DNA from: a virus
Lineage: Duplodnaviria > Heunggongvirae > Uroviricota > Caudoviricetes
IMG/VR virus record: IMGVR_UViG_2671180695_000012
Length of the DNA: 5,816 nt
Strand: one strand, 5' to 3'
Shown in pieces: positions 4,274 through 5,816 of this stretch. The notes below the pieces were generated by a model. That model was not told the origin of the DNA, searched no databases, and saw nothing but the letters and a program-made list of their open reading frames with translations. The position numbers and the translations under genes were made by a program. Numbering within the stretch: position 1 is the first letter of the stretch; the number at the start of each line of letters is the position of its first letter.

Positions 4274-5095
4274 TTACCTAGTTACCTTTTTTAACTGCCG
4301 CTCAGCCCATGCTTCTTCAATATCAAACCGGGTCACCAGCGCATCATAGAATTTCTTAACTGTTTTTTCCCATGACGCGCGTGTTATCTGGTTTGTCACC
4401 TCGCATATAGCATTAAATGCCTCCGTTGATGGTAGTCTTTCATAGCCACGACCACCACAACGCTGGCAGTCTCTGATAACAGGCATACCACGTTTTACCG
4501 ACTCTTCACGATGAATGGCGACACCACGCCCACGGCAATCCTTACAGGCGGTGGAAACCTCACCCTTTCCGCCACACTCCGGACAGGCAACTTTTACCAC
4601 CTCCCTGACTTTTTTCCATTCTTCCCAGTAAGACGGATACACACCTTTCGTACACTTTGCCCATACCGGCGGCTTACCATCCGGATACTGGACCTTGTTT
4701 GTAAAAACTACGCTTTCAATAAATTTTTCCCCATAGCAACAAGGGCACTGCTTTTTACTCGCTGCGCTGCGGGCATAATCCTCAAAAGCGTACGAAGCCA
4801 TAATGCGCATCACTAACGGTTTTATTTCTGCCGGAAGTTTTCTCAACGCCGCCACACGATCGCACCGACTGAGTGCATAATCTGCCAGTAATTCTGTTGC
4901 CCGCGCCCTGTCATTCATACTGATGCCCATTTTCCCCAGGAACGCAGAAAACCCCATCTCAGCCCGATTCTGTGTCATGCCCTGCGCGGCCATCACATCA
5001 GTGATACTCAGCGCATCTTTTGACGTTGAGGCCGATGCATCGGTCAGGCCAGGGGATTTTGGGGAGTAGTATTTCGGTAAATCTTCCAGTTTCAT
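4274..5095 (-). CDS. Q: lambda-family late-gene antiterminator Q, with an expanded Cys-rich (CxxC) region
   Basis: 273 aa. The N-terminus KYYSPKSPGL...ITDVMAAQGM and the C-terminus TVKKFYDALV...KVTR align with recalled lambda Q (KFHSPKSPMM...GTDVMAAMGM...TVKPLYDALV...AVTR). It contains four CxxC motifs where lambda Q has two. The start overlaps the rusA stop (ATGA). Confidence 0.85.
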   Translation of the reverse strand: MKLEDLPKYYSPKSPGLTDASASTSKDALSITDVMAAQGMTQNRAEMGFSAFLGKMGISMNDRARATELLADYALSRCDRVAALRKLPAEIKPLVMRIMASYAFEDYARSAASKKQCPCCYGEKFIESVVFTNKVQYPDGKPPVWAKCTKGVYPSYWEEWKKVREVVKVACPECGGKGEVSTACKDCRGRGVAIHREESVKRGMPVIRDCQRCGGRGYERLPSTEAFNAICEVTNQITRASWEKTVKKFYDALVTRFDIEEAWAERQLKKVTR

Positions 5096-5478: not shown

Positions 5479-5769
5479 TTACCCAAGCACGCCAGTTGCA
5501 AAGGCGTGATCAAGAAAACGAAAAATTAAATCAACCTGAGAACCATGCTTTTCTTCGAACGCCAGCGGATCCGCATGAAGCTCGTTGTGATGCTCCCGAC
5601 ACAGCGGTAGCGTGAAAATATCGTGAGATTTTGTCCCCATTCCGCCCTGACCATGACCAATCAGGTGATGGGGATCGTCGGCTGGCTTACCACAACACGC
5701 ACACGGCTGTGTCTTCACCCAGCGTGTGTATTTCTCGTTAACCCAGCGGCGACGTTTAGGTCGTTTCAT
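5479..5769 (-). CDS. YbcO-like small protein (DUF1364-type), Cys/His-rich putative metal-binding nuclease-like protein
   Basis: 96 aa from the ATG at 5769 (MKRPKRRRW...); the ORF track extends to a GTG at 5811, so the start is uncertain. It contains CACCGKP...HHLIGHGQGGMGTKSHD...LPLCREHHNELH, consistent with the family that precedes rusA in DLP12-like nin regions. The family name is from memory. Confidence 0.5.
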   Translation of the reverse strand: MKRPKRRRWVNEKYTRWVKTQPCACCGKPADDPHHLIGHGQGGMGTKSHDIFTLPLCREHHNELHADPLAFEEKHGSQVDLIFRFLDHAFATGVLG

Positions 5770-5816
5770 GAAAGATTCCGGAGACTCAGGATCAACGGCA
5801 ATGCTGACCACCGTCT

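Follow-up and report, generated by a model that had tools for sequence, protein, structure and literature searches.

The window, by which we mean the whole stretch of 5,816 nucleotides of viral DNA that was analysed, carried a Q antiterminator gene next to a late promoter, a pause element, a terminator, four tRNA genes and a lysis cassette. The features were located as follows.

4274-5095, minus strand: Q antiterminator gene, 273 amino acids plus stop, long four-motif form of the lambda family
4916-5095, minus strand: residues 1-60, N-terminal segment, counterpart of the lambda Q residues that refold to give the nozzle of the RNA-exit channel (from alignment and low pLDDT)
4757-4915, minus strand: residues 61-113, first half of the four-helix 'body' (from helices of the AlphaFold2 model)
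4553-4756, minus strand: residues 114-181, segment absent from lambda Q, proposed proximal zinc ribbon (not aligned to lambda Q)
4724-4747, minus strand: motif 1, CPCCYGEK (C117, C120), read from the sequence
4562-4585, minus strand: motif 2, CPECGGKG (C171, C174), read from the sequence
4442-4552, minus strand: residues 182-218, distal zinc ribbon, equivalent of the lambda Q arm (lambda 116-152)
4523-4546, minus strand: motif 3, CKDCRGRG (C184, C187)
4445-4468, minus strand: motif 4, CQRCGGRG (C210, C213)
4277-4441, minus strand: residues 219-273, second half of the body with the helix-turn-helix region (aligned to lambda 153-207)
4241-4268, minus strand: PR'-like late promoter, read from the sequence
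4263-4268, minus strand: -35 element TTGATT
4247-4262, minus strand: 16-nt spacer TTTCCGGAATCTGTGG, candidate Q-binding element
4241-4246, minus strand: TGn-extended -10 element TAAATT
4229-4234, minus strand: putative sigma-dependent pause element AACGAT, followed by GGG (hexamer and position identical to lambda PR')
4174-4193, minus strand: tR'-like intrinsic terminator, AACCCGCCGCCGAGCGGGTT then TTTTTATT (terminator scan)
3821-4130, minus strand: four tRNA genes, Met-CAT, Lys-TTT, Thr-TGT and Gly-TCC (ARAGORN)
3598-3613, minus strand: second terminator-like hairpin, GCCCGC-TTTT-GCGGGC with a T-run (terminator scan)
1235-3528, minus strand: lysis cassette, presumed target of antitermination (Pfam PF04971, PF07041, PF00959, PF03245, PF06085)
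3313-3528, minus strand: P21-type holin
2994-3308, minus strand: DUF1327 gene
2405-2938, minus strand: lysozyme
within 1235-1786, minus strand: Rz
1297-1482, minus strand: embedded Rz1

The protein encoded at 4274-5095 was a member of the lambda Q family, and every defining feature that could be tested was found in it. The Pfam Antiterm profile (PF03589) matched with 185 bits and an E-value of 2.6e-55 (cut-off 26.7), which confirmed the family proposed in an earlier note on this DNA. PHROG 127, 'anti-termination protein Q-like', matched over the whole 273-residue ORF. In a phmmer search of all PDB chains, lambda Q (7ubm_Q) was matched at E = 3.4e-40 in two collinear blocks. Query residues 1-113 corresponded to lambda residues 1-113, and query residues 182-273 to lambda residues 116-207. 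These results bore out the collinearity with lambda Q at both ends that the earlier note had described. Residues 114-181, a segment of 68 residues, were without a lambda Q counterpart, and the net surplus of 66 residues in this pairwise alignment agreed with the insertion of about 65 residues that had been claimed. The profiles of the Q82 family (PF06323) and the Q21 family (PF06530) gave no match at E-values up to 1. Q82 and Q21 are separate families whose sequence similarity to the lambda family is not obvious (PMC9388147). Phage 82 Q was considered as a long lambda-type Q and was rejected, as PMC9388147 places it in PF06323.

The exact protein had already been deposited under the name 'antitermination protein [Escherichia coli]'. 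It was found on 140 contigs, and its 90% cluster had 3739 members. Genes identical at 99.5-99.6% were found in records named as phages (vB_EcoS-640R1, mEp460_ev081), which argued that the gene is functional. The Q gene was located after the nin/rusA region, with RusA and DUF968 genes upstream, and before the late promoter, pause element, terminator and late genes, which is the position typical of the family. The 110-aa ORF at 5479-5811 on the minus strand covered only the C-terminal part of DUF968 (profile positions 66-171 of 171), with a weak hit to an HNH-like nuclease. In K-12 and 55989 the corresponding gene encodes about 350 aa (ydfU type), and the DUF968 gene probably runs off the edge of the window.

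The domain layout was described with reference to lambda Q. The body of lambda Q consists of residues 61-113 and 153-207 with a helix-turn-helix at H4-H5, and its arm is the zinc ribbon of residues 114-152 (PMC9388147). A model of the full protein was predicted using AlphaFold2 with 67 homologues, and the mean pLDDT was 81.6. The block of residues 1-113 aligned to lambda Q at E = 2.4e-22 (phmmer) and covered the nozzle-forming residues 1-60 of lambda Q. The pLDDT was low at residues 14-26, as expected of a segment that is disordered when free. By analogy with lambda Q, residues 1-60 may form a nozzle (PMC9388147). Helices at 60-80, 82-85 and 92-108 made up the first half of the body, and helices at 223-233 and 239-272 made up the second. 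The four-helix body with its helix-turn-helix was superposable on solved lambda Q.

The distal part of the arm corresponded to the arm of lambda Q. C184, C187, C210 and C213 aligned to the zinc ligands C118, C121, C144 and C147 of lambda Q, so that by alignment a Cys4 zinc-ribbon arm equivalent to that of lambda was present, with metal binding predicted. Between motifs 3 and 4, strand 192-195, helix 196-202 and strand 206-209 of the model reproduced the lambda arm (B1-H3-B2). Within residues 199-203 (4487-4501), V200 took the place of lambda E134 and was flanked by K201 and R202; this tip was more basic than that of lambda Q. In lambda Q, the arm-tip mutation E134K raises DNA binding, and E134 matters for the contact with sigma region 4 (PMC9388147).

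All four CxxC motifs that the earlier note had listed (CPCC, CPEC, CKDC and CQRC) were present. Motifs 2, 3 and 4 had the exact CxxCxGxG form, as stated there, and motif 1 was CxxCxGxx, where phi80 Q and most relatives have exact CxxCxGxG. Conservation was assessed across 67 homologues. C184, C187, C210 and C213 were invariant, as were C171, C174 and G176, and C117 and C120 were nearly invariant. Motifs 1 and 2 were also kept in phi80 Q and in QuuQ of E. coli K-12. This meant that the four-motif pattern was not due to chance. The number of eight extra cysteines in the earlier note had to be corrected to four extra motif cysteines; C119 and C148 are additional, and C148 was not conserved. The extra segment had been placed at residues 125-209 (4469-4723). 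The segment is real, but these bounds leave out motifs 1 and 4, and the alignment gave residues 114-181 (4553-4756). The segment was mildly basic, with 12 K/R against 8 D/E. The residues R109, S110, A111 and A112 (RSAA) that flank it were invariant in a four-way alignment.

The extra segment was predicted to be ordered, which went against the alternative, raised in the earlier note, of a disordered stretch. The pLDDT was about 70-86 over the segment and about 69-74 at its tip. The model placed a strand at 114-116, motif 1, a long hairpin with strands 125-136 and 159-170, motif 2 and a strand at 179-181, in this order. The tip of the hairpin held two small helices (144-148 and 154-157). Motif 1 directly preceded the first hairpin strand and motif 2 directly followed the second. 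A model of the arm only (residues 108-222) showed the same elements with a pLDDT of 75. Motifs 1 and 2 enclosed one hairpin and motifs 3 and 4 a second one, and the model was most simply read as two tandem zinc ribbons with the motif pairs 1+2 and 3+4. The same pairing was suggested by the family, because motifs 1 and 2 were present or absent together and motifs 3 and 4 alone make up the solved zinc site of lambda Q. The pairing was thus drawn from predicted secondary-structure topology and indel logic only. The most likely fold of residues 114-181 is that of a further zinc ribbon, self-contained and with its zinc at the base of the hairpin. To our knowledge, the solved structures of the PF03589 family are all of lambda Q, and long-form members are without one.

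We also considered the insert as a tandem duplication of the lambda-type ribbon. The similarity found by hmmsearch and hhalign was limited to the knuckles, with 11 columns and a probability of 18%. An origin by tandem duplication was neither shown nor excluded by this similarity.

The prevalence of the long form was then determined. From a search of 1.84 billion 50%-identity representatives, the best 150 of 237 hits were aligned when near full length, and 39 diverse full-length representatives were kept for a tree. Motifs 1 and 2 were both present in 33 of the 39; the survey was seeded with a long form, so this ratio of long to short forms is biased upward. In this set, the insert varied from 29 to 78 aa with both motifs kept, and motif 3 was often CxC, as in phi80 Q. 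This CxC knuckle (e.g. CRCHGKG of phi80 Q; L003:11138-11947) is one residue shorter and aligns to lambda C118/C121. In the 39-sequence set, the extra segment was present or absent as a unit. In the neighbour-joining tree of these sequences (shared regions, midpoint-rooted, no support values), short forms were found at at least four separate places, and the short P0163 was sister to the long P0132. Judged from these sequences, short forms arose more than once.

Phage records and host genomes were also surveyed. When 60 phage records were sampled evenly down the ranking, 32 had long forms (714-828 nt matched) and 27 had the 621-nt short forms of the lambda/P22 type. The long-form records included SfV, ES18, Fels-1, mEp237, phiEt88 and Stx2c phages. 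In 5426 complete E. coli genomes, the gene type of the window was present in 2495 (46%), the QuuQ type in 2471 and the lambda type in 1361 (25%). Among the 120 matches listed, the close homologues were all from Enterobacteriaceae, the full-length ones were mostly 260-277 aa, and most carried precomputed PF03589 and PF00684.26 hits. One close homologue was labelled 'chaperone protein DnaJ' by its source. The module was seen in phages of Escherichia, Salmonella, Klebsiella, Enterobacter, Citrobacter, Serratia and Erwinia. In the sequences surveyed, most family members have the four-motif arm, and the short form of lambda is the minority. The insertion as a special feature of this protein, as the earlier note had it, did not survive these comparisons, because the same motifs were found in phi80 Q, in K-12 QuuQ and in the 33 representatives. 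No description of a four-motif arm or a second zinc module was found in the literature that could be searched, and the Gifsy-1 AntQ paper and the Pas sRNA preprint contained nothing bearing on the insert.

The closest studied relative of the window protein is phi80 Q (gp17, AFV29194.1, JX871397; 269 aa), which was 41% identical and collinear over the full length. Phi80 Q is named in PMC9388147 as the subject of Guo & Roberts 2004 (J Bacteriol 186:3599). It shares motifs 1 and 2, and its hairpin (FTNKVSYPWGKPPYW...PSDWESW) is similar and likewise long. The gene occupies the same position, and the sequence after it holds an annotated pR', a Q-binding site, AACGCT and, about 55 nt downstream, a terminator. 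However, its motif 3 is CxC (CRCHGKG) where that of the window is CxxC, and its promoter spacer is TTCGCGGAAAAACTGGA. QuuQ (YdfT; 250 aa) of the cryptic Qin prophage of E. coli K-12 was 44% identical and has four CxxC motifs in the same order. It has a DUF968 gene upstream, lysis genes downstream, and a PR'-like promoter with AACGAT-GGG and a terminator. It differs in its motif 1-2 hairpin, which is about 19 residues shorter (insert of 50 against 69), in its promoter spacer and in its host prophage, which is defective. Lambda Q (207 aa; PDB 4MO1, 7UBJ-7UBN) has no equivalent of residues 114-181 with motifs 1 and 2 and the hairpin. It also differs from the window in its promoter spacer and in its terminator, which is further downstream.

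The promoter region was compared among the same systems. The layout of the window, 3' of the Q stop codon, was TTGATT-N16-TAAATT-N6-AACGAT-GGG, and that of lambda PR' is TTGACT-N17-TAAATT-N6-AACGAT-GGG. The annotated pR' of phi80 also matched this arrangement. The promoter was not listed by a consensus promoter scan. The AACGAT hexamer was identical in lambda, the window, Qin, SfV and mEp237, and its role as a pause element would follow that described for lambda (PMC9388147). A terminator was found at the equivalent place in phi80, K-12 Qin, SfV, ES18 and mEp237. The nearest phage Q relatives of the window protein were those of mEp237 and phiEt88; the spacer TTTCCGGAATCTGTGG was nearly identical to TTTCCCGAATCTGTGT of mEp237 and close to TTTCCCGAAACTGCGC of phiEt88. 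The PR' spacer tracked the relatedness of the Q proteins, and Qin and SfV shared TTTTCAAAAAATATGGA. The spacers of phi80, Qin/SfV and ES18 differed from that of the window despite the same extra module. The geometry of the promoter (-35, spacer, -10, N6-7, AACxxT) was the same for long and short forms.

These comparisons bear on the proposal that the extra module is an added interaction surface that alters DNA or RNA-polymerase specificity relative to lambda Q. The earlier note had placed the insertion in the part of Q that contacts DNA and RNA polymerase. This placement was correct, as the insertion site is the junction of body and arm, and the arm of lambda Q makes contact with DNA, with sigma region 4 and with the beta' zinc-binding domain (PMC9388147). 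Sigma region 4 is touched by the tip of the lambda arm (133-137), positions 11-13 of the binding element by residues near the zinc, and the beta' zinc-binding domain, in the loading complex, by residues 110-112, 117 and 122-126 (PMC9388147). The module falls between lambda residues 113 and 116, which is the hinge of body and arm inside the beta' contact stretch. An auxiliary contact role is conceivable from this position and from the invariant RSAA that flanks it. The mildly basic segment, the hairpin sequence partly conserved with phi80 Q (FTNKVxYPxGKPPxW, PSxWExW) and a promoter spacer unlike that of lambda are also consistent with a change in specificity. However, long forms with the same module had clearly different spacers (window/mEp237, phi80 and Qin/SfV types), and the geometry of their promoters was that of short lambda. 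This meant that specificity varies among long forms with the same module at constant geometry, which argues that the module alone is not the specificity determinant. In addition, the tip of the hairpin was the most variable and least confident part. We therefore consider an altered specificity possible and, on balance, rather unlikely. A further reading, that the proximal ribbon with its partly conserved aromatic- and proline-rich hairpin makes a contact that lambda Q lacks, is likewise possible but rather unlikely. Partners could be the beta' zinc-binding domain, the flap, sigma region 4, NusA or upstream DNA.

The zinc knuckles may also be read as a DnaJ-type interleaved domain, in which motifs 1 and 4 hold one zinc and motifs 2 and 3 the other. 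The cysteine-rich domain of DnaJ (PF00684) and B. subtilis anti-TRAP both contain repeated CxxCxGxG knuckles and show weak sequence and fold similarity to the window protein. PF00684 (DnaJ_CXXCXGXG) gave 28.4 bits over residues 171-218, which is under the curated cut-off of 32.7, and the DnaJ model TIGR02349 aligned to residues 163-218. Anti-TRAP aligned to residues 167-195, covering motifs 2 and 3; in anti-TRAP, two adjacent CxxCxGxG motifs share one zinc. Profile comparison also found motif 1 to be most like motif 4. However, lambda Q has only motifs 3 and 4 with a solved zinc site, and if the domain were interleaved, neither site would survive the loss of motifs 1 and 2. In the AlphaFold2 model, the hairpins between motifs 1 and 2 and between 3 and 4 reunite each pair, whereas single strands bridge the two sites in DnaJ, and the predicted topology of the window protein was that of tandem ribbons. 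No hit to a J domain or DnaJ_C was obtained in the window protein at E-values up to 1. The likeness to DnaJ is a shared motif and not family membership, and an interleaved domain is unlikely. That the segment is a rare insertion of recent date, or the gene a dead remnant of a prophage in decay, is highly improbable: many E. coli copies do lie in cryptic Qin-like prophages, but here the reading frame was intact with all motif cysteines conserved, the downstream promoter, pause element and terminator were intact, near-identical genes were found in phage-named records, and the module was spread over phages of seven genera.

Based on these results, we consider the protein very probably to be a functional, common long-class member of the lambda Q family, in which residues 114-181 would be a second zinc ribbon with a structural or auxiliary role rather than one that sets specificity. 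A second zinc would be held by motifs 1 and 2 at the base of the long beta-hairpin. The insertion of this ribbon at the junction of body and arm would turn the 'arm' into two tandem zinc ribbons, and the module would most likely support the arm structurally or provide it with an auxiliary contact, without determining promoter specificity. If the homologous lambda Q is taken as the model, the candidate Q-binding element in the PR'-like spacer would be bound by the helix-turn-helix body together with the distal zinc ribbon. Q would then engage RNA polymerase paused at the sigma-dependent pause element AACGAT, after which its N-terminal 60 or so residues would build the nozzle at the RNA-exit channel. 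Polymerase modified in this way would pass the terminators at 4174-4193 and 3598-3613 and transcribe the four tRNA genes and the lysis genes. Antitermination by the window protein, its zinc content and its Q-binding element are thus those that sequence and analogy with lambda Q predict.

The presumed target region had several features of its own. The tRNA genes were tightly packed between the Q-controlled terminator and the lysis genes. An Rfam scan at gathering score found three of the four, missing the Lys gene (3977-4053), and nothing besides these three tRNAs. The strong hairpin at 3598-3613 separated the tRNA genes from the holin gene. E. coli 55989 has a Q gene that is 99.8% identical, but with tRNA-Ile, tRNA-Arg and TolA-like genes 3' of it, which makes the tRNA slot mosaic. 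In the lysis cassette, a P21-type (class II) holin and a lysozyme were encoded at 2405-3528 on the minus strand with the DUF1327 gene between them. The N-terminus of the lysozyme, MSAKIKYGLSAAVLALIAAGASAPQ, resembled a signal-anchor-release segment. The sequences suggested a pinholin/SAR-endolysin system.

The gene is an ordinary prophage late-gene switch of the lambda family, and both the protein and its architecture were already known. Its discovery value is little, as about half of the complete E. coli genomes carry this prophage antiterminator and it is annotated as a matter of routine. Its meaning lies in the family. The structurally characterised lambda Q is a reduced, minority form, and in the common form a further zinc ribbon is predicted right at the contact of lambda Q with the beta' zinc-binding domain. 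The family includes the Q proteins of some Stx-converting phages. A long-form structure or a deletion analysis would bear on whether the loading mechanism of lambda holds family-wide. If the extra ribbon does make a contact of its own, most Q proteins of the lambda family would load onto RNA polymerase in a way that departs somewhat from textbook lambda.
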